Below are positions 1,594 through 55,508 of a stretch of 64,000 nt of DNA, in pieces. Below the pieces are notes generated by a model. The model worked only from the letters and a program-made list of their open reading frames with translations, was not told the origin of the DNA and searched no databases. Position 1 is the stretch's first letter. Every line of letters starts with the position of its first letter. The position numbers and the translations under genes were made by a program. Location: positions 13,214 to 77,213 of IMG/VR virus record IMGVR_UViG_3300048998_000119. The stretch is one strand, 5' to 3'. Origin of the DNA: a virus. Its lineage: Duplodnaviria > Heunggongvirae > Uroviricota > Caudoviricetes.

Positions 1594-2825
1594 CGCCCCG
1601 AGATAATCTCCAGGTACTCACTGTGCGGCACTTGTGCCCGAGTGCCCTTCTTGGGTTCGATTTTATAGACATAGTTCTCGGGCCATTCACGTCCACCGCC
1701 CCACCAAGTAATTCCGAGCCAATCATCGGGATGACCTTTGATTTCAGCGACTGCTTGATTGAGATCATCGCGGCAAACAGGATTGATGCCACCGGCGTTG
1801 CCGCCTGCACCCTCGCCCATGTAGGCTTTATAGCCCAGTAGAGCAGCGTCGGCGCGAAGGCTGTCGTACCAGAAGCCGGTTTTGGTTACACACTCCCAGT
1901 GCGTACCCGTACCGCCGTCATCCCAGTACATATGACCTTCCATAAGGAGATTGGTGTCACCCAAACCGCCCACACGCTTGATTGCACAGACGGCGCTTTC
2001 ACACGCCTTGGTGTCTGCCTCATGCTTGTTGAAGCGATAAATAGCGCTGGAACCGGGCCATTCTACGGCGATCGTGTTGTTGAAGCCAGCCGCACGGAGT
2101 CCCGCGATGATGGCCTTGGTGTCTGTCGCCCACTGCATCCAGTCATTCGTCACGACGGTGTCGTTGAAGTCCCTCGGCTCATTCATCAGATCGATGATGA
2201 CTCTGGGATTTGACTTGTAGGGAGCAGCCTTCTTAATCCAGTAGGGGATTTGCTCGTCGGGCGTATGCCAAGTGAAGTGATGGCGATCCATCACCACGGT
2301 CGCACCCTTGGCCAGCAAGGAGTCTATAGAGAAATAGAGCTTACTGGTCGGAGTGACGTCCTTGAACGCCACACGGAACAACTGGAAGTTCTGCGCCGGA
2401 GCGGTATACCAGTCGATGTCGTCTTGATTTGGACAGAGAGCGCCATCGTTCGACGCGTAACAACCTGCGAGGTTGACACCGAAAGGATTGAGCGTGGGGG
2501 CGGCGACTGCACCGTCTAGCACCTGATACTTGAACGCGTCGGCCTTGTAACCAACGGTAGGTACAGGAGCTACGGCCTTGAGCTTGGTTGCTCCACCGCT
2601 CAAAGAGAAGCGCGCACTGTTCATGCGGTTGACCCAGCCATCCTTCAGACGCTGAGTGAGTACGCCGTTCGCGTCGACCTTCTCCACAAGAGGTTTACTC
2701 GTGTAGATGATGTCGCCCTGATGGACTTGTATCACACCGCCCGATAGCGGAATGGGGATTGTGTCTGCGTACGCAACTGTACTGGACAGAAGCATAAACA
2801 GCATCAGAAAGTATTTGATCATCAT
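1590..2825 (-). CDS. secreted glycoside hydrolase family 5-like enzyme (putative polysaccharide depolymerase)
   Basis: N-terminal signal peptide MMIKYFLMLFMLLSSTVAYA; GH5 acid/base motif IIDLMNEPR and nucleophile motif YMGEGAGG; GHMYWDD. Confidence 0.7.
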   Translation of the reverse strand: MMIKYFLMLFMLLSSTVAYADTIPIPLSGGVIQVHQGDIIYTSKPLVEKVDANGVLTQRLKDGWVNRMNSARFSLSGGATKLKAVAPVPTVGYKADAFKYQVLDGAVAAPTLNPFGVNLAGCYASNDGALCPNQDDIDWYTAPAQNFQLFRVAFKDVTPTSKLYFSIDSLLAKGATVVMDRHHFTWHTPDEQIPYWIKKAAPYKSNPRVIIDLMNEPRDFNDTVVTNDWMQWATDTKAIIAGLRAAGFNNTIAVEWPGSSAIYRFNKHEADTKACESAVCAIKRVGGLGDTNLLMEGHMYWDDGGTGTHWECVTKTGFWYDSLRADAALLGYKAYMGEGAGGNAGGINPVCRDDLNQAVAEIKGHPDDWLGITWWGGGREWPENYVYKIEPKKGTRAQVPHSEYLEIISGR

Positions 2826-5422
2826 GAGACCTTTATGAGACGGCCCGAACCGTATTCCGGCTTGACCGTACGACTTGCGCTTTCAGGCTTCACAATACGT
2901 CCGGATGGCGTAATCGTGGGTTTGTACAGAATGTAGTAGCCCGTGACCACATCATCGGCTTCTCGAATTACTTGAGGTGCTCCGACCAGCGCACCGCCGC
3001 CCGAAACAACTTCCGACAGCAAGTCGGCGTCTACACCGATACGCACTTTGGCGTCAGACACGTAGACATCATCCTCCAGGGATATAATTGAATCTACCTT
3101 GTCATACGCGACGACGCTTGCCGTGACCGTATCGTTCTCCAAGGTGAAAGCGCAGTAAGCCATAATGGGATAAGTCACGTCTCCCGACGCGATGTCGTCT
3201 TCCAGTTGCATCAGCCCGTTGGCGTATACAAGCTCGGTGCTGACACTGGACAGAATGTCGTTGTCTTCGATGATGGAAGCCTGGGTTAATACAACAACCT
3301 TGGCTGAGCCAACGAACCCGTCCGCTTCCTCGCAGATGTCTGCATTGAAGGTGAAACGAGAAGGCAGCGCACCGATGAGCGTATCATCTGCCTCAGCTAT
3401 AAGCCCGGTGGCCTGCACCTTGGCGATGAGGCTACCAGTTAGAGTGTCGTCGGAAACCAGCATTGTGCCGCTGGCCGTTACTCTCGCGAGCGTCAAACCT
3501 AGAGCGACGTCGTCTGCTTCCACCAGAGAAGCGTTGGCTTGCACCTTGACGCCCGTGGAGGAAACAATCGTGTCGTCGCCCAACGCGATCGAGCTGCTTA
3601 TCTGTAGACGTACAGAACCCGAACCTGAAGCGGTGTCGTTGGCTTCTGTGAACGAGCTATTGGCGGTCGCCGCAGCGGAAGCGGAAGCCGCAACCATAGG
3701 ACGGACTGTCTTATATGGATGATCCGTTGGTAGTAAAGCCTGCAAACCTGTGGCCCAGGCATACCAACCGCTCAACATAATACGTAAGTCGTCTGTCAGC
3801 GCACCTGCAACAATAACCAACTGTTGAAGCGGTCCGTTCAGACCCGTGGTGTCGGTCGCGCTGTAACCACCAACAGTGACAAGCTGAGTATCCACAGGAT
3901 ATGGCACAAGTCTGCTGAGTGTACCACTGCTACCGTTAATGTTGAGATACTGACCCGCAGAATCCCAACTGGCGATCGCCAACACGTCCTTACTGTTCCA
4001 GGATACAGCGCTAACGGTATTAGAACCAGACTTATTACTGATGTATGCGTTGCCGTTATTGGCAATGCCGATGGCACGTACGTTGGTGGTACCCTGGTTG
4101 AAGAGGGAACGATAACCAGTAGTCGTGAATTCACCACCCGCCAAAATAACAACAGGTTGAGCGCCTGAGGGCATCGTCGTGGCTTGCGCAGTCATCTGCG
4201 TATTGCTGTTGAACATAATAGCCGGATAGCCATTACGCCCGGTGGCATTGTATGATGGACCCCTACCAGCGGTCGCGGGCGTAAGATTGAAGCCACCTAC
4301 GCCCTTATTGTTCCACTGCAAGAGCTTAGCGCCGTCTGTGTCGAAGACCATTGTGGCGGTATCTGCACTATCAAACCAGCCAATAAGCGCACTGCCCAAC
4401 TGCGTGGGCGTCCAAGGGACCAACAACTGAGCGGAACCTTGCACAATGTCGCTGTCTTCCAGCATAGAGCCAATTGACTTGACACGTACACTGGCGTCAC
4501 CCGAACCCACATCGCCGCCTGAACCGGGAGCGTTAAGCATAGCACCGATAAGCACCTTACCCACAGAGACGAGTGTGTCGTCCTCCGTGAGCAGGTTGGC
4601 GTCTGCTTTGACGAGCTCCTGAGAGCTACTAACGAGAATGTCGTCCGCTTCAGCGATAGAGGCATCAGCCTTAATCAGAAGCGAACTGGCACCCACAGCG
4701 ACATCGTCGTCGGTCGTGATTGTGGCGTCCGCTTTGATCACAACAGCACTGTCCGCAGACAGAACATCGTTCTCCGTCAACAAGCTGGCGTCGGCCTTCA
4801 CAGGCACAACAGCATCAGACAACAGAAGATCGTTATCTTCAAAGCCACCGCCGTCGAACTTGGGAGGATCGGGCAGAGTATACTCAGCCACAATCAAGCC
4901 ATTGCCGCCCACCGAAGAGGCCTTGTTCGCGCCGAACCCGAAGGCTGAACGCTGTAAGGTTTCTCCGGTCGAAGAAGTCCAAGACGTAGGCAAGGCAGGA
5001 ACAGCTGCACCCGAATAACTACCTGTCGTACCACTGCCTGCGGCCGAACCGTTCGTGGTGGTACCCTTGGCGCTGTTGTAGACGTTGTAGTCCACAGTAC
5101 GAGGATAGATACTAGAGTTACTGGCCGCAGCACCCGGCGTTGTGCCGGAAGCGTTGTAACCGTAACCCGCCATCACAGTGCGATCGTAATGTGGGGAGTT
5201 TACACTGGTTGTGGCTGTACCGCCTACCGCGTCCACGGTGATGACGAGCACTTCACCGGGAGTGACCGCCATAGTGCTGACGATGATTACACCGCCAGAA
5301 CCACCCGCACCCGTTGAAGACTTACCGCCTGCACCGATGGCGGTGAACTTGATGGACGTGCAACCTGCCGGTACTGTATAGGTAGTCGTACCGGCTTTAA
5401 GAAATTCGACTACCTGAGACAT
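2822..5422 (-). CDS. tail-fibre-like protein: Gly-rich N-terminal domain, ConA/lectin-like central domain, two blocks of ~14-aa repeats
   Basis: 866 aa; repeats KADASLLTENDVLS / KADATITTDDDVAV / KADASIAEADDILV etc; low complexity G/S/T-rich N-terminus. Confidence 0.6.
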   Translation of the reverse strand: MSQVVEFLKAGTTTYTVPAGCTSIKFTAIGAGGKSSTGAGGSGGVIIVSTMAVTPGEVLVITVDAVGGTATTSVNSPHYDRTVMAGYGYNASGTTPGAAASNSSIYPRTVDYNVYNSAKGTTTNGSAAGSGTTGSYSGAAVPALPTSWTSSTGETLQRSAFGFGANKASSVGGNGLIVAEYTLPDPPKFDGGGFEDNDLLLSDAVVPVKADASLLTENDVLSADSAVVIKADATITTDDDVAVGASSLLIKADASIAEADDILVSSSQELVKADANLLTEDDTLVSVGKVLIGAMLNAPGSGGDVGSGDASVRVKSIGSMLEDSDIVQGSAQLLVPWTPTQLGSALIGWFDSADTATMVFDTDGAKLLQWNNKGVGGFNLTPATAGRGPSYNATGRNGYPAIMFNSNTQMTAQATTMPSGAQPVVILAGGEFTTTGYRSLFNQGTTNVRAIGIANNGNAYISNKSGSNTVSAVSWNSKDVLAIASWDSAGQYLNINGSSGTLSRLVPYPVDTQLVTVGGYSATDTTGLNGPLQQLVIVAGALTDDLRIMLSGWYAWATGLQALLPTDHPYKTVRPMVAASASAAATANSSFTEANDTASGSGSVRLQISSSIALGDDTIVSSTGVKVQANASLVEADDVALGLTLARVTASGTMLVSDDTLTGSLIAKVQATGLIAEADDTLIGALPSRFTFNADICEEADGFVGSAKVVVLTQASIIEDNDILSSVSTELVYANGLMQLEDDIASGDVTYPIMAYCAFTLENDTVTASVVAYDKVDSIISLEDDVYVSDAKVRIGVDADLLSEVVSGGGALVGAPQVIREADDVVTGYYILYKPTITPSGRIVKPESASRTVKPEYGSGRLIKVS
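2932..3640 (-). repeat. tandem in-frame repeats (block 2) inside fibre gene
   Basis: C-terminal third of protein: ANASLVEADDVAL, ATGLIAEADDTLI, TQASIIEDNDILS, DSIISLEDDVYVS... Confidence 0.55.
4546..4840 (-). repeat. tandem in-frame DNA/peptide repeats (block 1) inside fibre gene
   Basis: recurring gcgtc(c/g)gc(c/t)tt...gtcgtc units encoding (K)ADAxhxxxDDxL. Confidence 0.6.
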
Positions 5423-16889: not shown

Positions 16890-17153
16890 TCAATGTTCCT
16901 TTGTAAATGCAACAAGAGAAACCAGATCGATCCCAGAATCTTTGCGGGCAACTTCTTTGCCGTCCACAACCTTGGTCAACGTCGGGTACTTTCTGATCAC
17001 CTTGTTTTGATGCCTGATGGGGCATTCTTCCAGCCAGTCATAAATAATTTCTCTGCCCGGAAGTAGAGTTTCTCGGAAGCAATCGATCGTCTCGACCAGC
17101 TCCTCGCTTTTCATCGACCAATGAGCTACGTAGACAATGTAGATTGTGCCCAT
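16890..17153 (-). CDS. hypothetical protein (87 aa)
   Basis: ORF track. Confidence 0.35.
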   Translation of the reverse strand: MGTIYIVYVAHWSMKSEELVETIDCFRETLLPGREIIYDWLEECPIRHQNKVIRKYPTLTKVVDGKEVARKDSGIDLVSLVAFTKEH

Positions 17154-29102: not shown

Positions 29103-31007
29103 TCACTTGATGGGGCATGCTCCACTTGCACATTCATCGTCCCCTTCGAACTCCGCCTCTGAGACGGAGGTGATAAGCCGAGTTTCTGCCACAAGTTCGT
29201 CATACTGTTCTTTCGTGATTTCCTCCAACGGTGCTTGCTTGAAGCCGTGATCGGAATGCAGCAGGAAGGAGAGTGACTTATGGCTGTGCCGGTAATACTT
29301 CTCCAAGTACTCACGGATCGCCGGAAGCTCTTCCTTCTTGTAGTAAATGGTGCATGAGACAGAATTGTCCGACCACTCAGTCTGAAGACGCTTGATCCAG
29401 TTCAACTGATCAAAGGCCGTGACGTCTGCGGCCACGGTGGTGCCTTCAGGATAAGCGAACGGGAAGGTCACGACCACAGTGTTGTAGTCGTCTGAGCCGT
29501 CGAAGTTCTGCTGATACTCGACCGGATAGCCAGCCTCACGACAGATCGCCACGAGGCGATGATCTGCGGCGATGCGAATGCGACGATACATATGACGAGC
29601 ATATGCGGGATGGACACCCGGAGTCACACCCGGCAGAAGAGACAACGTGCCGCTCGGCTTGACCGTGGTGAGCTTGATCGAGATTGGAACGCCCTTGCGC
29701 TTACTATACGTCGCGTCGTACTCACGCAGGAACAGATAGCCGTCGTTCATCCAGGACAGCTGCTCTTCGCTGCTCTGGAGAATACCCGTCAGACCAATGC
29801 CCATACGCATGTTGCGGTGGACGATTGCTTCGGTGCCGGGCTGATGGCTCTTCATCATCAACGAGTGCTTGTTGATGCGGTAACTCAGTTGCAGAATATC
29901 GAGGAACTCTTCCTCCGATGTAACATTCGGAAGGAATACCTCACTCAGACAGCAGGTTTCGAAATTCGCAAGCGACTGTTCTGCGCAAGGATTGTACCCC
30001 TCGACGTCCGGGTCTGGGTAATCAAAGTCACCCAGGCGACCGATCTGACGAGATAGACTGAGATTAATGAGTCCGTAAGGCTCGCCTTTGCCTTCGTAAC
30101 CGTCCCAGAAGTAGGGATGCAGATCGGCAATGTCGTCGCACGCGACCGAGTTGTTCGACATAGCGCGCCACTTTGGAATATTGCCCATATCCCAACGCTT
30201 CGCAAGCAGGTACTCAACGTCATCTGGATCTCCAATGGCCAACTGAGCCGACCGGCGTACGTTACCGGCCACAATGATGAAGCCGATGATGTTCATAATG
30301 TCAAGGGCGTCGATCGGACGGATCTTACGACCCGCACGCTTCATCAGAATCTCGCTGATCTGCTGAATGCCCCAACACAGTTCTTCCGGCCCGCTGGCCA
30401 CACCGCCGAAGCCGTTGATCGGCTTACCCTTGCCGCGAATTACCTGCGTGCTGTAAGTGAAACTCCCCTTGGACGATTGGTCTGAGAGGAACGCCGACTT
30501 GAGGGTTTTTCCGAGAAGCTTGACCCAACCCTCACGGCTATCCGGCACAATGAAGTCTGCGCCACCTTCGTCAGTACGAACAGGAGCTTTGAACCACGGC
30601 CGGACTTCGGGTAGTTTGTCCACATGTTTCTTCTGAATGTTATACCCAACACCACTGCCGAGAGCCAGCATATCCATGCACCAGCAAAAAGGAGTGATGG
30701 GATGGTCCACCACGGTGAATGCACAGTTCTGGAGTGAAGCCAGTCCCAGACGATCCACAGTGCCAGTGCCGAGTTGCCAAAGAAATCGGCCAGCAACAGA
30801 CATTTTGAGATCGAGCATGTAACCTCGGGCGCGGTCTTCTTCATCCTTGGTGAACCCCACATGTAGTTGTTCGTCCGCCGCCTTGAGTACGCGGTCGATC
30901 GTGTCGGGAAATTCTTCCTGACGACCGTTGTCCATCTTACGCGAATAGGTACGCTTGTACGTAAGATAGCCTACGCTAGACCACGGCGTTTGTCCATTAT
31001 TCATCAA
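29103..31007 (-). CDS. nrdJ: ribonucleotide reductase, class II (adenosylcobalamin-dependent, monomeric-type)
   Basis: active-site GYNPCAEQS, C-terminal redox pair ECASGAC, 634 aa. Confidence 0.7.
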   Translation of the reverse strand: MMNNGQTPWSSVGYLTYKRTYSRKMDNGRQEEFPDTIDRVLKAADEQLHVGFTKDEEDRARGYMLDLKMSVAGRFLWQLGTGTVDRLGLASLQNCAFTVVDHPITPFCWCMDMLALGSGVGYNIQKKHVDKLPEVRPWFKAPVRTDEGGADFIVPDSREGWVKLLGKTLKSAFLSDQSSKGSFTYSTQVIRGKGKPINGFGGVASGPEELCWGIQQISEILMKRAGRKIRPIDALDIMNIIGFIIVAGNVRRSAQLAIGDPDDVEYLLAKRWDMGNIPKWRAMSNNSVACDDIADLHPYFWDGYEGKGEPYGLINLSLSRQIGRLGDFDYPDPDVEGYNPCAEQSLANFETCCLSEVFLPNVTSEEEFLDILQLSYRINKHSLMMKSHQPGTEAIVHRNMRMGIGLTGILQSSEEQLSWMNDGYLFLREYDATYSKRKGVPISIKLTTVKPSGTLSLLPGVTPGVHPAYARHMYRRIRIAADHRLVAICREAGYPVEYQQNFDGSDDYNTVVVTFPFAYPEGTTVAADVTAFDQLNWIKRLQTEWSDNSVSCTIYYKKEELPAIREYLEKYYRHSHKSLSFLLHSDHGFKQAPLEEITKEQYDELVAETRLITSVSEAEFEGDDECASGACPIK

Positions 31008-34467: not shown

Positions 34468-36495
34468 TCAGTGAATTTCCCTCCAGTTCTTTCCGGTCTT
34501 GCCGCTGCCGTCCATGAAGTCGATTCCGAAAATCTTCGGACCTTCCTGGAAAGCCTTGACGCCCAACTCAGCCGCTCTGGCCGCGTGCTCATCCGGCACG
34601 GAGCAGTCGCCTTCGTCGTGCATAAAGATATGTGGCTTGAACGGAATACCTTCTTCGCGCATCCAGCGCATCCACAGCATAATAGCCGCAGAGCAAGTGG
34701 CCTTTTCAAACGCTTGCAGTAGATACACAAGTAGCTTGTGCGTCGAATCAACATACACAGGTACTCCACCGATTCCGGTGATGTAGCCACCCTTCTTGAT
34801 CGAACCGCTAAATCCAATCTTCTTGGTCTCTGCGAACTCACGATTGAGCGCCTTCTCCAGCTTGACTAGATTAGGAACTTTCTTCGTGAAACCCTTCTTA
34901 AGTTGACCGCCGAGCGTGGCGTCCGGTGAACCAAAGCAGTAGAGCCAGACTTTAGCGCCACCTGCTCCGAACAAGAACGCGTAATACACACGTTTAGATC
35001 GAGCACGTCTTTGCTTCCACATAACTTTTTCAGCCGCTTTGCGACCAGACGTGTAGTACTGCTCATAACTAATCCCCTTTCTGTCGAGGAATCGTTTGAG
35101 CGCACCTTTGGCTTTGGTGCTCTTGGCGAGGAACGCACCCCAGTCCACACCCATTTCTTTGAGCACTGCGTCCAGCGCCTTAGCGTTGTACATGTGGATG
35201 TCGCCCTTGGTGATGACGTCGATGTACTCAGCACTCTTCAGATAGAAGGCAAGTCCTCGTCCTTGGTTGCCCGCAGAGTCGCAACCCACCAGCGTCCATC
35301 CAGGCTCTGAAATGAAAAGGGATCGCATTTCTGGTCCCCATTTTGATTCCATTGCGGGGACGTTAACGATAATGCTGTGGCGCGCACGTAGACTCGGGGT
35401 GCCGATAGTGACGCAGTCACCGTGGAGTCGTCCTTCGGCGTCTGTGTTTTCAATCCACCCTTTGAGGATGGATAGTCGTGAAGATGCAACAGAGAACTCA
35501 CGATAGAGCTTACCGTCGCCGCCAAGAAACTCCAGACTCTCTTCGGTAATCTTAGGGCTTGTTTGGACCTTACGTTTTGTGGCTTCGTCGAATTTGCTGT
35601 TGTACTCAAGAGGTATCCATCCGTTTCTGAACAGAAATGTCTTCACATCATCTGTCGAACCAAGCTCAAGCGGCACCACCTTCATACGGCAGTACTCGCC
35701 GACGACCATGACTTCCTCGCCCGGATAACCGGACCAGGGATCCACATCGAAATAGGTGGCGATGTGTGAGTGATACGCACCTTCTTTGGTCCACCTAGTG
35801 GATTTGACTTCGACCTCTTTGCCCTGAGTGTTGGGCACCTTGTCGAGCGCCACCGTCTTCATTCCCAACTTGGGTTCCAACAGTGCTCTGTTCTTCTCGA
35901 CAAGTTCTTCTAGTTCAATCGCCAGCTTCGAACCGGTTTCGACGTCGAAGGGCCAACCTCCCATGTGAGCCATACCGACCCATTCGGACGCGGCGTGTTC
36001 GCACAGAAGATAATCAGCCAACTGAGGGGCTCGCTTGGACTTCGACTTGTACTCATCCAAGAGCATCTTGTACATGACGATGTTACCTTTGACGTCGCTC
36101 AAACAACGTGTCCTCATTTCTTGTGAGAACTGGCTCCAATCGTTATGCTCTTGCTTGTCGTAACCTGTGTGCTTGCCCCATTCGTCTTGGCTGTGTTTGA
36201 AATTGCCGAATCTGTTATAGTCCAACGCGCGAGACATAATGAGAGTATCTTGGAGTAACGCCTCTTCGGGAGGCACCCAGCCAGTCAACTTCTTGAATAA
36301 GGGCAGATCGTGTTCGATTATGTTCTGCCCGATGATGTGGGTGGCGGTTTCCAAACGTTCCTGCCACCCAAGATCACCTTCAAGATATTCCCATACCTCG
36401 CCCGTCTCGACATCTTCAATCACGACGATCCAGAGCCGAGTTGCCTCAAGCGCCAGACCGTCTGATTCAGAGTCGAATACGAGTTTTACAGCCAT
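34468..36495 (-). CDS. DNA polymerase, family A (T7 gp5-like) with 3'-5' exonuclease domain
   Basis: exo I FDSESDGL, motif B RRARSKRVYYAFLFGAG, motif C HDEGD. Confidence 0.8.
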   Translation of the reverse strand: MAVKLVFDSESDGLALEATRLWIVVIEDVETGEVWEYLEGDLGWQERLETATHIIGQNIIEHDLPLFKKLTGWVPPEEALLQDTLIMSRALDYNRFGNFKHSQDEWGKHTGYDKQEHNDWSQFSQEMRTRCLSDVKGNIVMYKMLLDEYKSKSKRAPQLADYLLCEHAASEWVGMAHMGGWPFDVETGSKLAIELEELVEKNRALLEPKLGMKTVALDKVPNTQGKEVEVKSTRWTKEGAYHSHIATYFDVDPWSGYPGEEVMVVGEYCRMKVVPLELGSTDDVKTFLFRNGWIPLEYNSKFDEATKRKVQTSPKITEESLEFLGGDGKLYREFSVASSRLSILKGWIENTDAEGRLHGDCVTIGTPSLRARHSIIVNVPAMESKWGPEMRSLFISEPGWTLVGCDSAGNQGRGLAFYLKSAEYIDVITKGDIHMYNAKALDAVLKEMGVDWGAFLAKSTKAKGALKRFLDRKGISYEQYYTSGRKAAEKVMWKQRRARSKRVYYAFLFGAGGAKVWLYCFGSPDATLGGQLKKGFTKKVPNLVKLEKALNREFAETKKIGFSGSIKKGGYITGIGGVPVYVDSTHKLLVYLLQAFEKATCSAAIMLWMRWMREEGIPFKPHIFMHDEGDCSVPDEHAARAAELGVKAFQEGPKIFGIDFMDGSGKTGKNWREIH

Positions 36496-41391: not shown

Positions 41392-41470
41392 AAAAAAAAA
41401 AAAAAATAGTGAGTTATGGTTCAGAAGAAGGACACCCCAGAGAAACGCCCGAAGGCGTCTCCCTGAGGTG
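41392..41470 (-). promoter_or_regulatory. 14-bp hairpin (with G-U pairs) followed 30 nt later by T16 immediately upstream of the HD-gene RBS
   Basis: minus strand: CTCAGGGAGACGCC-ttcg-GGCGTTTCTCTGGG ... T16 CCGGAGGTCCACGTG. Confidence 0.35.
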
Positions 41471-42859: not shown

Positions 42860-43474
42860 TCATCGAGCTTTTTCATTATATAGTTTCCTTCTAACCGCTA
42901 GTAATTGACGTTTTAATTCTATGAATGCAGTAGGCACGTCCTTTTTACTGTTTAAATTTAGATCGGTACAAATCCTACGTTCAACATAGGTATCGGCAAG
43001 AAATAGACGTTCTAAAGAGGAACGATATTCTGTACGGGCAGCGGTGTCCCTCCCTCTCTCGTTACGTCTCGCACAACCACGTCGAGCACGTCGTAATCTG
43101 ACAATGTCAGCCGTGTACCGTCCGTAGCAGCTAATACACAAAGTTGTGTAGTTATATCGTGGTACTGTTGCCCACGTGCAATGACAGTGATCGCAACGAG
43201 GTCTAGGCGGAGTTTCATGGACGGGTGGTTTATAGTCTACACGCTTGGCTCGACATTTACGCACCACTTCTTTTCTCACTTCGGGTCCGCAATCTCGACA
43301 ATAAAATACATGCGAAGGCCCTTCAGCAATTGATATATTGCAACGCTTGCATTTACGAGCTAATCGTCTCTTTTCACTCCTCTCATTTTGAAAACATGTT
43401 CTACAACGACTTGTGCAAGTCTTATAGAACATGGTGACATCTTCTGTGCGACAGAAGACACAGCTGTACTTCAC
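42860..43474 (-). CDS. Cys-rich multi-zinc-ribbon protein (204 aa)
   Basis: >20 Cys in CxxC pairs. Confidence 0.45.
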   Translation of the reverse strand: MKYSCVFCRTEDVTMFYKTCTSRCRTCFQNERSEKRRLARKCKRCNISIAEGPSHVFYCRDCGPEVRKEVVRKCRAKRVDYKPPVHETPPRPRCDHCHCTWATVPRYNYTTLCISCYGRYTADIVRLRRARRGCARRNERGRDTAARTEYRSSLERLFLADTYVERRICTDLNLNSKKDVPTAFIELKRQLLAVRRKLYNEKAR

Positions 43475-44256
43475 TTAATATTGACGAGCGACCCGCCGGT
43501 GCCCTGGACGAACGTGCAGTTCTTGTTTCCGCAGACGGATTTCAGCGTGTCCAACGTGCGAAGCTGAACGAACTGATCTGCATTCAGACCCAGACCATTC
43601 TGGTAGGCTCGATCCGCTTCGGCGCGCTTGGCTTCTGCGTTTTTGCGCTGCTCTTCAGCCAACACAGTCTTCTGCATCGTCAGCACACGCTGTTCCTGAG
43701 AAGCCGTGGCGATGCGCTGATCCTTCACAGAATCAGGCGGATTTGCCCGACCAATAGTGAACCGAACGAGTCGCACAGGGAACTTGTTCCGGGCGAAGTA
43801 CTGTTCCAGCCGTTCCGAAACTTCGGCATCGATCGAGGCTGCGGCGGTAGTGCTGATGGCCGTCTCGTTCAGACCATGCTTCTTGACGGCGTCGCGGATG
43901 TACGACAGCAGTTCGGTGCTGATGTTGTTGTCGTACCAGTTCGAGCCATAACGCTTGACGAGCGCGACCGAGTCGGTGACCTGCGTGACGACAGAAGCGT
44001 CGAAGTCCAGAGGTACACCGTCGCTGGTCATCAGATCGTTTAGCTCAAGCTTGTGCTGCTCCGGCTGCATGTTGACGGTGATCGCACTAGTCGACCAAGC
44101 GACTAGTTCGGTGCCCTTGACGGGAGTGTCGAACACACCGCCCGAGCCGAAGAACCAGGGCTTTGCGTTGAGAACTTTTTCCTCGTTGGGCTCAGTACTC
44201 ACGTAGGAGCAAGCCGAAGTGGCGAACAGAAGCGAGAGAAGAAACATATTTTTCAT
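43471..44256 (-). CDS. SPFH (band-7/HflKC-like) lipoprotein
   Basis: lipobox LLFATSAC; RLVRFTIGRANPPDSV and Ala/Glu/Gln-rich AEEQRKNAEAKRAEADRA tail typical of SPFH C-termini. Confidence 0.5.
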   Translation of the reverse strand: MKNMFLLSLLFATSACSYVSTEPNEEKVLNAKPWFFGSGGVFDTPVKGTELVAWSTSAITVNMQPEQHKLELNDLMTSDGVPLDFDASVVTQVTDSVALVKRYGSNWYDNNISTELLSYIRDAVKKHGLNETAISTTAAASIDAEVSERLEQYFARNKFPVRLVRFTIGRANPPDSVKDQRIATASQEQRVLTMQKTVLAEEQRKNAEAKRAEADRAYQNGLGLNADQFVQLRTLDTLKSVCGNKNCTFVQGTGGSLVNIK

Positions 44257-44927: not shown

Positions 44928-45371
44928 TTAAATCTTATTCGCACGACGCATCCGTGCCACGCCTCCCAACGCCAGGAAGCCGACGGTCATTGCGCCCCAG
45001 GTGGCCGTCTCCGGGACCGGGGTGATGAGACCCTGCCCGCCGCCGCCGTGCCCAACTCCGCCTCCACCTGGGAAGCCACCGCCTGAGCCTGCACCTCCGC
45101 CGCCCACAAAACCGCCGCCACCGGAGCCGAAACCACCGTAGGAGAACTCGCCGCCAACGCTATCGGGCAGCGGGCAAAGAGCCAGATTACTCTCGATCTT
45201 GATGTCGCGAACTGGAGGCTCGTCGAAGACTTCCTTATGAGCCGTTTGGTTGATGTGGTGTTTGACCACAGCGATGCCGTGATTTATTTTGGCGTGATAG
45301 TGGTGAGTCGCGATTGGAGCCACCACAACGCAAGATAGTAGAACACCTTTGCTGAGCAAGTATTTAAGCAT
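44928..45371 (-). CDS. secreted Gly-rich protein with PEP-CTERM-like C-terminal sorting signal
   Basis: signal peptide; GGFGSGGGGFVGGGGAGSGGGFPGGGGVGHGGGG; C-terminus PVPETATWGAMTVGFLALGGVARMRRANKI. Confidence 0.45.
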   Translation of the reverse strand: MLKYLLSKGVLLSCVVVAPIATHHYHAKINHGIAVVKHHINQTAHKEVFDEPPVRDIKIESNLALCPLPDSVGGEFSYGGFGSGGGGFVGGGGAGSGGGFPGGGGVGHGGGGQGLITPVPETATWGAMTVGFLALGGVARMRRANKI

Positions 45372-45373
45372 GT

Positions 45374-45661
45374 CTAATCCTCTGAAAAGAGTTCCTGCAG
45401 GGTCCGTTCTGGATCCCAGCCAACTTTACGCTTTACTTCTTTCCCGTTGTGCATCAGCACAAGAGTGGGTACACCTCGCACGTCAAAGCGATGTGCCATC
45501 AGTGGTTGCTCGTCGACGTCTGACACCAACAACTCGATGTCATTTCGCTTACGAGCTTCCTCCAACGCGGGTTTCGCGGGCAACGCCCAAGACGCCCAGA
45601 ACAGCAACAACTTGTCGCCGGTGTCCAGGAGATCTTCGTTTGCTTGAGTGAGTTCGATCAT
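45374..45661 (-). CDS. thioredoxin-fold protein lacking the CxxC active site
   Basis: FWASWALPAKP aligns to Trx FWAEWCGPCK; RGVPTLVLMHNGKEVKRKVG aligns to Trx [20 protein letters not shown]. Confidence 0.55.
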   Translation of the reverse strand: MIELTQANEDLLDTGDKLLLFWASWALPAKPALEEARKRNDIELLVSDVDEQPLMAHRFDVRGVPTLVLMHNGKEVKRKVGWDPERTLQELFSED

Positions 45662-46152
45662 CGTTTCACCTTCAGACCAGCGGCGCTGAGTTTGGGCTTG
45701 GGAGCCTCCACAGGCTTTGCCTCTTCAACACTGACGGTCTCGATCAGGTTCTTCTGACCATTCATCTGCTTGGAGGCACCGGAGAGAGCGTCCTGCAGCT
45801 CGACCGCAGTCCAGACTCCTTGGTACTCACCATCCGACACAGTGACTTTGAAGCTGCCGTCCGGACATTCTGAGTCGGGAGCGACAACCTCAATCACCAG
45901 AGCACGTTCTTGACGCAGCAGACGAAGAGAGTCGCCGAGCGCGTTGATCTTGTCGCGATCGCTGAGATCTTCATTCGCCTCAAACTCGGCGTCGATCTTA
46001 ACCTGCAGCAACCACCACTTAGTTCCGCGATAAAGTTCTCTGGCTTCCTCCAGAAGTTCTTTCGCTCGGCTTTTTGTTTTGTGACCGGTGAAGGTTCCGG
46101 CCCTGACGATCGCCCAACCCGCGCCGTCTTTGGGTTTAAGAAACGGGGTCAT
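45658..46152 (-). CDS. hypothetical protein (164 aa)
   Basis: ORF track. Confidence 0.45.
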   Translation of the reverse strand: MTPFLKPKDGAGWAIVRAGTFTGHKTKSRAKELLEEARELYRGTKWWLLQVKIDAEFEANEDLSDRDKINALGDSLRLLRQERALVIEVVAPDSECPDGSFKVTVSDGEYQGVWTAVELQDALSGASKQMNGQKNLIETVSVEEAKPVEAPKPKLSAAGLKVKR

Positions 46153-52432: not shown

Positions 52433-52891
52433 TCAACGGGATGGATGATGCCGAGTCGGCCAAACCAAACGACCCGAAGCGACAGGCGTCCAGCCATCTT
52501 TTTCAAGCACTCGCTGGAACACACTCTGGTTATGAAGCGTACTGCTCGTCACCGCGATGTGGAAACCCTTCTTCTCAACCCACTCTCTGAAGTCTCTGTG
52601 GAAGTCACGTAACTCGTGAACAGCCTTGACGCCAGTAATGTTTGAGTGATAATAGATTTGACTGACCGCTCGAATCGGTGAGTGATGATTGCCGTGGCCT
52701 TCTATAGCCATCATCCAACCATGCTCACCGATCTTGAAGTACCGTCTATCCGCGATTGCTTGATTCAGGAAAGCTCTAAAATGAACTCGATCGTGTGGAA
52801 AGAATTCATCGTTGTAGCGTGCGTAGAGATCTTCGGACAGATCACAAATCCATCCGAAGTCTGATCTCTTAGCTTGTCTGTAAGTACCCAT
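52433..52891 (-). CDS. hypothetical protein (152 aa)
   Basis: ORF track. Confidence 0.4.
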   Translation of the reverse strand: MGTYRQAKRSDFGWICDLSEDLYARYNDEFFPHDRVHFRAFLNQAIADRRYFKIGEHGWMMAIEGHGNHHSPIRAVSQIYYHSNITGVKAVHELRDFHRDFREWVEKKGFHIAVTSSTLHNQSVFQRVLEKDGWTPVASGRLVWPTRHHPSR

Positions 52892-55508
52892 CTTGTGTCT
52901 GCGCCAAATAGGGTGCCAGCATCTTCATAGAGGGGCTGTCCACCGGAGCCGAATAGTTGTTGTTGTCTGGATCCAGATGATAGATGTAGCTGAGCGGGAA
53001 GCCCGAACCCCATGTCGTCCAACCAAACAACACATCTTTATGGTCAAGCATATACTGATACATACTTGCCATGATAGGTCCACAGATGGTCTGAGCGGGA
53101 TCGCCTCCCGCCGTCTCACCGATGAAACCTCGTTTGTTGTGGGCGGTCAACCAATCCACGAACTGGCTGATTCTGCCGGAGCCTGTTCCGGACACACAGA
53201 AAGCTGAAGTACCGGAACCGTCGCTGTCGTTATAGCTGTGGCAGTGGTAAACTTCATTGTTGGCCGGATCATAGCTGGTGATGTTGGCGTCGCCGTTGCC
53301 GTTCTTGATGAACGAACCCGCCGAAGCGTACTCAGACATTTCACGATGGATTAGACCGGTGAAGTTAGTCTGAGCGCGAATGGCGTTCATCACTGCTTGA
53401 TTTATGTCTCGGGCCCAACCGGCGCCCAAGGAGTTGTTCACATCCTTCGGCTCGTTCATGAGATCAAAGTGAACACGAGGGTTGCCTTGAAACACCAGCG
53501 CGAGTTTCACCCAGACATCGATTAGATGCATGGTATTCAGTTCCGCGCCGTTGTAACGAACAGTGACGCCTCGACCATAATACTTATTGTCTGTTGAGTT
53601 GAAATACGGCTCGATGTTGTACTCCATGAAGTTATGCATATCCAGCAGAATATATCCGCCGAGGACGTTAGTCCAATAATTGATAACTTCAATGATTCGC
53701 CGCATATCCTGGTCATTGCTACCGGTGAACGGTACGTCGGGTCCGTAATAGAGTGGTCCCATAAGAACAGGTTGAATACGTTCCCAACGAATTGGAAGAC
53801 GTGCATAGCGTACGCCCTTGGACCAGTAGTAGTCCATTCGCTCATGCTGATAGCCCACACCGTTTTCCGGCTTGGACGGGTAGTAATAACGACCGCCGTT
53901 GTACGCGTACTTCTTGCCTGTGGTTGGATCGAAGATTGCGCCGAACTCACCGCCTGAGATATTCAAACCGTAAAGATTCTTGGGACAAGGTGGTTTAATC
54001 AAACCCGACAAGTAGACACAACTGTCCGGTATCACAAGTGGATCGAGATCCGGATCCGTGAGCCGCATAGTGTGCTTGCCCGTACCCGCGTGAGGAACCG
54101 TAAAGGTCACAGCACCCTGTGCCAAGGCTGTGTTCGTCGTCGTCAGCCTCGTGCCGTTTAAGGACATAAAGCCGCTCGCCGCCAAAGCTGCCTGCAGCGC
54201 CGAGTCGAACCCTGGGGGTGAGTTGACCGACGCCAGCGTCACGCTGCTGGGATTGTCGTTGGCCGGACCTTGTAAGGTGTAGGTGATGGTCGTACCGTCC
54301 GAGGTGGCCCGCAGTTCCCAGAACCGAGGAGGAAGATCGGCGAAGATACGCGTCTGCGAACCTCCGTTCATGGCGACCGGCGTGTATTGCCTCCACCAGT
54401 TGTTACGATAGGTCGTGCCGTCTGAGGGTGGCGGATTGGCGGAAGACTTCGTGACTAGATCATAGATAAACTTTTGTCCCGTCGGAACATAGATTACCCA
54501 GTCACCTTTCTTGTAGATGGTGGTGTTGTTCCAGTTGCCCTGATACGACACTGTGGCATCTTCAAAGCCGACAGCCACATCGCCCTCGATTGAAACGTTG
54601 GTAATACAATCCCACTGCATCGGGAGAGGTTCCGCCACACCGTCTTGTTTGACGGTCAACAGTATGCTCATTGGTTTGGTGGGATCGTAGCCCTTGCCCC
54701 ACGTCACATAACCACCGTTGAACCACTGTCCGGCCGTCGCTTCAGTCCATTGTGGAATTTCCACAGTGCAACCGGCCTCAAGTGCGGCTTTACGCAACTG
54801 TGTTCGGAAGTCCGGATCCAACTGCTTCTGACCGACGTTCGCTTCGTAGATTTTACAGCGATGTCCCTCAATCAGATTTGTCGTGTAGTAAGTAACTCTG
54901 AAGGAATCTCCTTCCTTCAGCTGCGCCGACACCGCTCCGTGATCCACACTCTCACAGTAGATATTCATGGCGGGAACGCCGGTGGGTCTCCGCGATGTGT
55001 CACGTACGTAAATGTAGCTACCAGAACCTGGAGCGATGTCGCCGTTGCCATAACCCTTCAGCAAGATCTGAAGATCACGTCCCACAGTTTTATCCGGAAA
55101 AGTGGTGTTCTGATCGTCCGAACGGTTACGTCTCACCGTGTTGGTGAACGTCATCACGTCGAAGCCTTTATAACTCGGCGTCGTCCTGATGGCGAACGAC
55201 ATAGTGCCGGACACAGCTGGCGTAGTGGTGCTGGACAGACGCTGGCTTGTACAACCGTGCTTGGCACACTCCGCCGCCACAATACCGTCCCAGTCTTGAA
55301 CGTAGGCGCCGTTGCCGCCGATATTGCCGGGTCCAGTAAACCAGACCACAATCATTTCATCGCCGTTGCCGGATGGATTGAAACAAGCCAACGTCCAAGT
55401 AATGTCGTCTCCTTCGCTTATATAACGTTCATTCAAATGGAGTTTCTGCCACGCAGGTTTAAGTGCGTAAAACGGAAACTCCATCGACGTATTAAACGGA
55501 GTAATCAT
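52869..55508 (-). CDS. tail fibre/spike with C-terminal GH5-like glycosidase domain
   Basis: 879 aa; C-terminal HFDLMNEPKD and GFIGETAGG paralleling the GH5 motifs of the 1590..2825 gene. Confidence 0.65.
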   Translation of the reverse strand: MITPFNTSMEFPFYALKPAWQKLHLNERYISEGDDITWTLACFNPSGNGDEMIVVWFTGPGNIGGNGAYVQDWDGIVAAECAKHGCTSQRLSSTTTPAVSGTMSFAIRTTPSYKGFDVMTFTNTVRRNRSDDQNTTFPDKTVGRDLQILLKGYGNGDIAPGSGSYIYVRDTSRRPTGVPAMNIYCESVDHGAVSAQLKEGDSFRVTYYTTNLIEGHRCKIYEANVGQKQLDPDFRTQLRKAALEAGCTVEIPQWTEATAGQWFNGGYVTWGKGYDPTKPMSILLTVKQDGVAEPLPMQWDCITNVSIEGDVAVGFEDATVSYQGNWNNTTIYKKGDWVIYVPTGQKFIYDLVTKSSANPPPSDGTTYRNNWWRQYTPVAMNGGSQTRIFADLPPRFWELRATSDGTTITYTLQGPANDNPSSVTLASVNSPPGFDSALQAALAASGFMSLNGTRLTTTNTALAQGAVTFTVPHAGTGKHTMRLTDPDLDPLVIPDSCVYLSGLIKPPCPKNLYGLNISGGEFGAIFDPTTGKKYAYNGGRYYYPSKPENGVGYQHERMDYYWSKGVRYARLPIRWERIQPVLMGPLYYGPDVPFTGSNDQDMRRIIEVINYWTNVLGGYILLDMHNFMEYNIEPYFNSTDNKYYGRGVTVRYNGAELNTMHLIDVWVKLALVFQGNPRVHFDLMNEPKDVNNSLGAGWARDINQAVMNAIRAQTNFTGLIHREMSEYASAGSFIKNGNGDANITSYDPANNEVYHCHSYNDSDGSGTSAFCVSGTGSGRISQFVDWLTAHNKRGFIGETAGGDPAQTICGPIMASMYQYMLDHKDVLFGWTTWGSGFPLSYIYHLDPDNNNYSAPVDSPSMKMLAPYLAQTQDGYLQTS

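Follow-up and report, generated by a model that had tools for sequence, protein, structure and literature searches.

Thioredoxin genes are common in phages, though their function had never been investigated before, according to a 2026 preprint that framed two candidate roles, i.e., as reductant of the phage's own ribonucleotide reductase (RNR) or as processivity factor of its DNA polymerase (bioRxiv 10.1101/2025.10.05.680603). What, then, does a phage use a thioredoxin for if the protein does not carry a single cysteine? This question is raised by a small protein encoded in the DNA analyzed here (64,000 nucleotides of a tailed phage of the Caudoviricetes, hereafter called the window), which also encodes both of the enzymes in question (Table 1). 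The window is part of a metagenomic contig of ca. 77 kb (Logan SRR27584636).

Table 1. Features of the window discussed in the text.
Feature	Position	Strand	Remarks
Class II (B12-type) ribonucleotide reductase	29103..31007	-	ends ...ECASGACPIK
T7-type family-A DNA polymerase, 675 aa	34468..36495	-	Tyr505 at the position of T7 Tyr526
Thumb insertion of the polymerase (aa ~206-283), ~70 aa	35647..35880	-	at the position of the T7 thioredoxin-binding domain (TBD), colinear
Strong terminator-like hairpin	41433..41470	-	17-bp stem, 10 GC pairs, T-rich tail
Downstream 147-aa gene	44928..45371	-	hydrophobic ends, Gly-rich middle
Trx-like gene, 95 aa, cysteine-free	45374..45661	-	homology, alignment, orthologues and selection analyzed
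Conserved 164-aa gene	45658..46152	-	stop overlaps the Trx-like start; C-terminal tail KPK-x-SAAGL-x-K

The open reading frame comprises 95 codons with an ATG start, has a Shine-Dalgarno-like AAGGTG motif a few bases upstream, and lies in a long co-directional array on the minus strand, where an ATGA combines its start with the stop of the preceding gene. A first-pass annotation of this DNA had aligned the product to thioredoxin along its whole length, while naming a different fold as the finding that would speak against it. The homology holds: Pfam PF00085 matches through profile positions 11-100 of 103 with E 1.9e-10 (41.1 bits, gathering score 23.5) and leaves no further Pfam domain besides this single one, a phmmer search of the PDB returned 149 thioredoxin chains (best 2o7k, E 1.8e-12, query residues 2-92 on 7-103), and BLASTP aligned the protein to E. 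coli TrxA with 35% identity (E 5e-15). These alignments place it in classical thioredoxin.

The active site, which had already been described as lacking its cysteines, indeed reads F21-W-A-S-W25-A26-L27-P28-A29-K30 on F27-W-A-E-W31-C32-G33-P34-C35-K36 of TrxA, i.e., WALPA in place of the thioredoxin WCGPC motif, and there are zero cysteines in the whole protein. The position of the buried Asp26, which assists deprotonation of Cys35, is occupied by L20, and the segment from the active site through helix alpha2 and the loop to strand beta3 is 5 residues shorter than in canonical thioredoxins. The elements of the substrate groove are kept, including the equivalents of Trp31 and Pro34, the cis-Pro loop as aligned previously (R62-G-V-P65-T-L on TrxA R73-G-I-P76-T-L), and Gly92 with the following aromatic residue (V80-G81 on TrxA V91-G92; VG81W vs. 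VG92A). Judged by its sequence, the protein thus has a classical thioredoxin fold that is incapable of thiol-disulfide chemistry, and protein-disulfide reductase activity is predicted to be absent. We place it outside the functional thioredoxin family because it lacks the CxxC motif and Asp26 and scores only 55.3 bits with the NCBIfam thioredoxin equivalog TIGR01068, under the cutoff of 96.8 bits.

One of the two candidate roles falls with these residues. At its C-terminus, the RNR of the phage retains a cysteine pair (CASGAC) and so still needs a dithiol reductant, which a cysteine-free protein without any CxxC motif cannot be, so that a role as RNR reductant is excluded.

Proteins of the thioredoxin fold that lack CxxC are well known as protein-binding modules, e.g., the b/b' domains of PDI, Dim1/TXNL4A, or the Trx domain of CnoX/YbbN. 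However, these are divergent members or domains, whereas the window protein is free-standing with 95 aa and scores as PF00085. The CnoX/YbbN label that JGI gives to P0001 ("thioredoxin-like negative regulator of GroEL") is unfit because the 95-aa protein has no C-terminal TPR domain. Syn5-type phage thioredoxins share the setting: the gene is small, and the phage that carries it also encodes an RNR and a T7-type polymerase. However, they have kept CXPC and are active as enzymes, with reduction of RNR as their supposed task, while the window family has no CxxC. The CXPC site is reported to be conserved among phage and bacterial thioredoxins, and most phage thioredoxins are without ca. 20 N-terminal residues, in contrast to the window protein that aligns from residue 2 (bioRxiv 10.1101/2025.10.05.680603). 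Another comparison is offered by engineered TrxA in which both Cys32 and Cys35 are mutated: these proteins are likewise cysteine-free and support T7 polymerase, the redox capacity of thioredoxin being dispensable for polymerase stimulation in the work of Huber et al. 1986 as it is cited in PMC3997047. The window protein can be regarded as the natural counterpart of these laboratory double mutants, with the difference that they were engineered by point mutation of a host protein, while the loss in the phage family is natural and ancient and goes along with replacement of Asp26 by Leu, replacement of Gly33 by Leu, Pro, or Thr, and the shortened alpha2 region.

This family was assembled in several ways. 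An exhaustive HMMER search of 1.84 billion representatives with the 95-aa query gave 3003 thioredoxin matches, and among the best 150 of these two small proteins were query-like at the active site, P0006 (WALPS) and P0033 (WAPPS). P0151, L016, and L017 came from profile searches and one metagenome scan; in the latter, an alignment of six members was too divergent, while one of four members recovered L016 and L017. Contigs with homologues of the polymerase contributed two divergent syntenic members, L009 at 3263..3568 (WSTAS) and L011/L012 at 2019..2315 (FAPPS). Altogether, the family comprises 8 loci, i.e., the window and 7 on related metagenomic phage contigs (L006, L007=L016, L008, L017, L009, and L011/L012), which are syntenic and all without CxxC; the orthologues read WALPS, WAPPS, WSTAS, or FAPPS at the active site. 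The Asp26 position is Leu or Phe in every member, and that of Gly33 is Leu, Pro, or Thr. Phe27, Pro64, cis-Pro76, Gly84, and Gly92 (E. coli numbering) are invariant, and the positions of Trp31, Pro34, and the aromatic residue after Gly92 nearly so. No cysteine position is conserved across the family; in L009, a cysteine occupies the equivalent of Ala29, two residues upstream of the active-site Trp.

All 8 loci have an intact reading frame, and as the members share just 27-44% identity, their cysteines must have been lost long ago. Between L008 and L017, the Trx-like genes differ with dN 0.018 and dS 0.225 (omega 0.08), and between L007 and L008 with pN 0.075 and pS 0.72, the latter being saturated; overall, dN/dS of the family is 0.03-0.08 and points to strong purifying selection. 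By these measures, the gene is not decaying and instead represents a conserved family under selection that is specific to this phage lineage. Ancient loss of the cysteines together with purifying selection calls for a non-redox function, and we consider it very likely that the 95-aa protein is a thioredoxin fold that only binds and has a real function in this capacity. The lineage therefore offers a natural separation of function, in which the redox role is gone, the gene is under selection, and a polymerase with a TBD-like loop as well as an RNR are present. As the redox role has been removed and the gene has been kept nonetheless, two or three recombinant proteins would suffice to test directly which role a phage thioredoxin plays.

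The family seems to be confined to these phages. A word-index protein search with the window protein returned the self-match only, and a scan of 185,579 prokaryotic species (one genome each) contained no family member: its 64 loci are at most 45% identical to the query, save two partial matches of ca. 30 residues (53% and 63%), and 21 out of 21 translated loci carry WCGPC, WCMPC, or WCPPC and thus a canonical W-C-x-P-C site. Scans of IMG/VR with the polymerase, with the family alignment, and with two divergent members did not return a family member either; two matches from IMG/VR, L004 and L005, were discarded as canonical WCGPC thioredoxins. Among GenBank phages, tblastn found only canonical thioredoxins with at most 40% identity, and these genomes held no relative of the window at nucleotide level. 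Literature searches turned up no description of a cysteine-free phage thioredoxin, and the cysteine-free classical thioredoxin of this phage lineage has thus apparently not been described before.

If the protein only binds, what does it bind? Thioredoxin has two well-studied uses in phages that are independent of redox chemistry, T7 replication and the assembly of filamentous phages, and it serves as an accessory subunit in both. The first-pass annotation had pointed to a T7-type DNA polymerase in the same DNA, proposed that the Trx-like protein may be its dedicated processivity subunit, and suggested to look for a TBD insertion in the thumb of the enzyme. The polymerase is real. Its sequence matches in the PDB are T7 gp5 plus one weak Pol I match (E 1e-4), and hhalign aligns it to T7 gp5 with a probability of 100. 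Structure prediction from the single sequence gave a pLDDT of 33.6, and we used the AF2 model built from an alignment of 60 sequences (pLDDT 91.9, pTM 0.86), with which the top 27 Foldseek matches are T7 gp5 (best E 2e-33, TM 0.73), followed by Klenow (E 9e-21).

An insertion is present in the thumb as well, so that the proposal survives the check for which the first-pass annotation had named absence of such an insertion as a refutation. Both BLASTP and profile alignment place residues ~206-283 on T7 ~257-338, a region that spans the TBD, with few gaps. The segment sits in the thumb before helix H1 and exceeds 50 aa, the minimum set for a TBD; because only ca. 29% of T7-like PolAs have a TBD of this size (PMC10201439), its presence is informative. 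It is 14% identical to the T7 TBD, with weak shared motifs (K-x-P-K-W/K-T-P-K-V and G-x-Y-C-R-V-E/A-P-Y-T-P-V-E), and is modeled at pLDDT 76-91 with little regular structure beyond short strands and one short helix. E261 falls on T7 E319 and C269 on T7 T327. In T7 gp5, E319 is one of the positions where suppressors of Trx G74D arise, and a Cys introduced at T327 can form a disulfide with Trx Cys32; the two equivalences would put the aligned segment of the window polymerase at the thioredoxin interface.

A specific mechanism can be proposed on this basis. The 95-aa protein would hold a partner in the canonical substrate groove of thioredoxin with no thiol-disulfide exchange, and its most likely client would be the ca. 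70-residue thumb loop of the phage's own T7-type polymerase. By clamping and rigidifying this loop over the primer-template duplex, it may increase processivity as TrxA does for T7 gp5, and a copy carried by the phage would free replication from the abundance, sequence, and redox state of host thioredoxin. Without its cysteines, the protein might be locked in a form that binds like reduced thioredoxin, in analogy to the cysteine-free mutants, and might also avoid the toxicity reported for a redox-active phage thioredoxin: that of cyanophage Syn5 harmed host growth, while a Cys-to-Ser version did not (bioRxiv 10.1101/2025.10.05.680603). Compared to the complex that E. coli TrxA forms with T7 gp5 at a Kd of about 5 nM (PDB 1T7P), the pairing would involve a classical thioredoxin fold of 35% identity with its groove residues kept and, as candidate partner, a T7-type polymerase with a colinear thumb insertion. 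It differs in that the window protein is encoded by the phage and TrxA by the host, that the former has neither cysteines nor Asp26 and is five residues shorter in the alpha2 region, and that the identity of the thumb insertion to the T7 TBD is low (14%), the pairing itself being a candidate one.

Should the polymerase be the partner, a virus can internalize the host processivity factor that T7 borrows and strip it of its chemistry, which would make replication independent of the cell's redox state and of host resistance by loss or change of trxA, and would provide a redox-insensitive clamp for T7-type polymerases. A processivity subunit is the best specific hypothesis that we can offer and a plausible one. 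That the polymerase thumb loop is the partner can be held only tentatively, and it is rather doubtful that the protein is, in a subclade of uncultured phages, the first natural case of a dedicated, redox-dead thioredoxin encoded by a virus to serve as processivity subunit of a T7-type polymerase.

The reason for this caution is that the comparative evidence for the polymerase as partner is mixed. When 120 polymerase homologues (47-72% identical) were aligned with MAFFT, the length of the thumb segment proved nearly fixed, with 79-87 aa in 120 out of 120 sequences and 85 aa in roseophage DSS3_VP1; the segment is conserved about as well as the rest of the enzyme (47-71%). The Trx-like gene, by comparison, was seen only where the polymerase is at least 55% identical to that of the window. 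Searches with the family HMM and with a general thioredoxin HMM recovered no thioredoxin gene from the 10 kb to each side of the polymerase of L013, L014, and L015, whose polymerases are 48-49% identical to the window's, or from 42 kb of DSS3_VP1. Since all homologues have the insertion, including those of relatives without the gene, the search for an insertion does not discriminate between the possibilities. Within the insertion, no residue is fixed differently in the subclade that bears the gene. The segment of the polymerase that does vary is a helical insertion in the fingers (19 aa in most homologues, 60 in the window, and up to 78); a link between this insertion and the Trx-like gene was rejected, with 59 aa in L014 that has no gene and 39 aa in L011 that has one. 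Polymerase-homologue contigs L018-L020 end before the relevant region and stand outside this co-occurrence comparison. L018 (polymerase 68% identical) comes from the same sample as L006, the WALPS-bearing member.

Rates of divergence are a second concern. For the same pairs of genomes, identity is 29-35% for the Trx-like protein and 55-58% for the DNA polymerase, 60-65% for the RNA polymerase, and 76-77% for RNR, and such fast divergence of the Trx-like protein relative to the polymerase is not what an obligate pair would predict. In T7, binding of thioredoxin to the TBD is reported to be tight and highly specific, and a thioredoxin 57% identical to that of the host is poorly recruited (PMC8010470). 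It is possible for a conserved loop to bind Trx-like partners as divergent as these if its contacts are mainly with the conserved groove. Results for Syn5 also count against the polymerase as partner, as AF3 did not place the thioredoxin of this cyanophage on the TBD (bioRxiv 10.1101/2025.10.05.680603). The proposal of a dedicated processivity subunit thus stands in its ingredients, i.e., a thioredoxin fold that is redox-dead in a phage with a T7-type polymerase and an insertion at the TBD position, but not in its distribution, given that the insertion is also present in relatives where the gene was not seen near the polymerase, nor in its genomic location, which is outside the replication module.

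This location may point to a different partner. Along the direction of minus-strand transcription, large structural or tail-type genes, including one for an 879-aa protein with a GH5 domain, are followed by a block of ca. 11 kb of small genes, nearly all without a family match, which holds the Trx-like gene. Next come a gene for an SPFH/Band-7 protein, the terminator-like hairpin, a YfbR-like gene, the genes of a T7-type single-subunit RNA polymerase and of the family-A DNA polymerase, and finally those of a 5'-3' exonuclease, a primase-helicase, and the class II RNR. Judged by the polymerase (32% identity), the closest cultured relatives are the roseophages DSS3_VP1 and DSS3_PM1 (Naomviridae), in which the modules come in the same order. 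The Trx-like gene accordingly lies ca. 9 kb upstream of the DNA polymerase gene, in a block that precedes the RNA polymerase gene and is hypervariable, and the hairpin divides this block from the YfbR-like and RNA polymerase genes.

Directly upstream of the Trx-like gene, every locus with a comparable upstream gene encodes a protein of ca. 153-164 aa that is 25-37% identical across loci and has the conserved KPK-x-SAAGL-x-K tail at its C-terminus. Stop and start of the two genes overlap or abut in the window, L007/L016, L008, L017, L009, and L011. A presence/absence table based on tblastn showed that the relatives have almost nothing else of the block before the RNA polymerase gene in common, and the pairing of the two genes is meaningful because the rest of the block is almost unshared. 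The Trx-like protein may thus be a subunit of an accessory cassette together with the co-translated ~164-aa protein and have a role in early infection or at the envelope that is unrelated to the polymerase. Its thioredoxin fold would hold a peptide of the ~164-aa partner, possibly the C-terminal KPK-x-SAAGL tail, and the cassette would in relatives also take in a small protein with two transmembrane segments and a YegP/DUF1508-like motif, which is unrelated to the window's 147-aa gene product and occupies the slot of its gene.

Besides the constant adjacency, the similar speed at which both genes diverge (28-37% and 29-38% identity), the membrane-type proteins in the neighborhood together with the SPFH/Band-7 protein, which is close by in the window and in L017, and the separation from the RNA polymerase and replication genes by the terminator-like hairpin all favor this explanation. 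However, phage genes are often adjacent and translationally coupled without any physical interaction, and the upstream ORF of L006, a 65-aa C-terminal fragment cut by the contig end, is without the SAAGL motif. The 164-aa protein also has no recognizable family, with nothing credible in Pfam, PHROGs, PADLOC, NCBIfam, or a PDB profile search, and for this reason no mechanism can be derived. We regard such a cassette as possible, though on the whole unlikely. If it is this or yet another partner that the protein binds, phage infection would turn out to employ the classical thioredoxin scaffold in a new way that needs no redox chemistry.

The small genes around the Trx-like gene evolve fast and precede the RNA polymerase gene, a position that is also typical of genes for host takeover. 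The Trx-like protein could, as in the alternative named by the first-pass annotation, be a decoy or competitive inhibitor, i.e., an unreactive look-alike that occupies host TrxR or thioredoxin clients early in infection and diverts or shuts down processes that depend on thioredoxin. The groove residues that thioredoxin uses for TrxR and its clients are retained, quick divergence is expected of a protein that interacts with the host, and L017 also encodes a TrxR homologue (E 4e-38 to TrxRs in the PDB) with a replaced redox CxxC that reads A-C-T-Q. Yet a thioredoxin completely free of cysteines makes a poor trap: non-covalent complexes of thioredoxin with clients or with TrxR are weak, and effective traps keep Cys32. 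Furthermore, blocking the dithiol system of the host would be self-defeating because the phage's own RNR depends on it in working order. We therefore consider a decoy improbable, while a processivity subunit remains our preferred specific reading.

It is hardly credible that an earlier, redox-active phage thioredoxin is here in decay and has no function left, as the loss of catalytic residues and the TIGR01068 score far under its cutoff might suggest, in view of frames that are intact at 8 loci despite divergence to 27-44% identity, an omega of 0.03-0.08, conserved synteny, and invariant fold and groove residues. We likewise give very little credence to residual chemistry via a partner, with the Trx-like protein as a specificity subunit that presents the partner's cysteine or binds a cofactor, because the family has no conserved cysteine, the window protein has none at all, and Asp26 has been lost too. 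Two members could be read in this way, L009 with its cysteine close to the active-site Trp and L017, which couples the Trx-like gene with that of the TrxR-like flavoprotein.

In the thumb insertion of the window's T7-type family-A DNA polymerase (34468..36495 (-), 675 aa), C269 (nt ~35689..35691) aligns with T327 of T7 gp5, a position that is Cys in 78 and Ser in 28 of the 120 homologues aligned. In the T7 system, a disulfide forms between T327C and Cys32 of thioredoxin. If so, relatives that use host thioredoxin could be covalently linked at the C269 position, while the cysteine-free phage-encoded thioredoxin-fold protein (dead Trx) would be incapable of such a link. The polymerase also carries an insertion in the fingers subdomain (aa 441-500) that is 60 aa long, compared to 19 aa in most of the 120 homologues (maximum 78 aa) and 9 aa in T7. 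It is confidently predicted to form a helical bundle (pLDDT 94-97), and its length does not follow the presence of dead Trx among the polymerase homologues.

The related metagenomic contig L017 encodes both dead Trx and a thioredoxin-reductase homologue (E 4e-38 against PDB thioredoxin reductases; 204 bits for TIGR01292, below the cutoff of 343). Its redox-active CxxC is replaced by A-C-T-Q, and its motifs for FAD and NAD(P)H seem to be preserved. A thioredoxin-reductase homologue of this kind is absent from the window. An SPFH/Band-7 protein is common to the window and L017. Elsewhere in the window, an 87-aa ORF looks like a second, minimal thioredoxin-like fold without CxxC, with H-W-S-M-K-S at the active-site position and a cis-Pro-like loop reading R-K-Y-P-T-L. 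It reaches only ~14 bits against the profile of dead Trx orthologues and likewise against the general thioredoxin profile, with no match in Pfam or NCBIfam.

The conserved ~164-aa protein encoded directly upstream of dead Trx keeps a C-terminal tail, KPK-x-SAAGL-x-K, and has no match in the libraries searched (Pfam, PHROGs, PADLOC, NCBIfam, and PDB). Directly after dead Trx, relatives encode a protein with two N-terminal TM helices and a motif resembling YegP/DUF1508 (W-x-F-x-V..D..G....S..Y), a slot that in the window holds an unrelated Gly-rich protein. The 879-aa GH5 protein is probably a tail depolymerase.

Features of the window and of related phage contigs
Feature	Location	Strand	Remarks
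Thioredoxin-reductase homologue	L017 3925..4821	+	PDB TrxRs, TIGR01292
87-aa ORF	window 16890..17153	-	Trx-like, no CxxC
~164-aa protein	window 45658..46152	-	directly upstream of dead Trx
~164-aa protein, relatives	L007 365..859; L008 139..630; L009 2802..3266; L011 1561..2022; L017 588..1079
Two-TM protein	L006 479..796; L007 1142..1429; L017 1366..1707; L009 3561..3890; L011 2299..2661		directly after dead Trx
Gly-rich protein, 147 aa	window 44928..45371		slot after dead Trx
SPFH/Band-7 protein	window 43471..44256	-	E 3e-17
879-aa protein	window 52869..55508	-	C-terminal GH5 cellulase domain, E 4e-29
Terminator-like hairpin, strong	window 41433..41470	-	17-bp stem, 10 GC pairs, T-rich tail
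T7-type RNA polymerase, two pieces	L013 5175..8142; L014 5030..7977; L015 3626..6622
Class II (B12-type) RNR	window 29103..31007	-	after primase-helicase
Class I NrdA/NrdB	L014 15760..18655; L015 15971..18730; L018 10358..13149		after primase-helicase

The hairpin stands between the small-gene block and the YfbR-like and RNA polymerase genes. In L013, L014, and L015, which are more distantly related, an HNH_3 endonuclease ORF divides the T7-type RNA polymerase gene into two parts. The slot following the primase-helicase is occupied by a class II RNR in the window, L009, L011, L013, L019, and L020 and by class I NrdA/NrdB in L014, L015, and L018; the position is constant, and the RNR module in it has been swapped.
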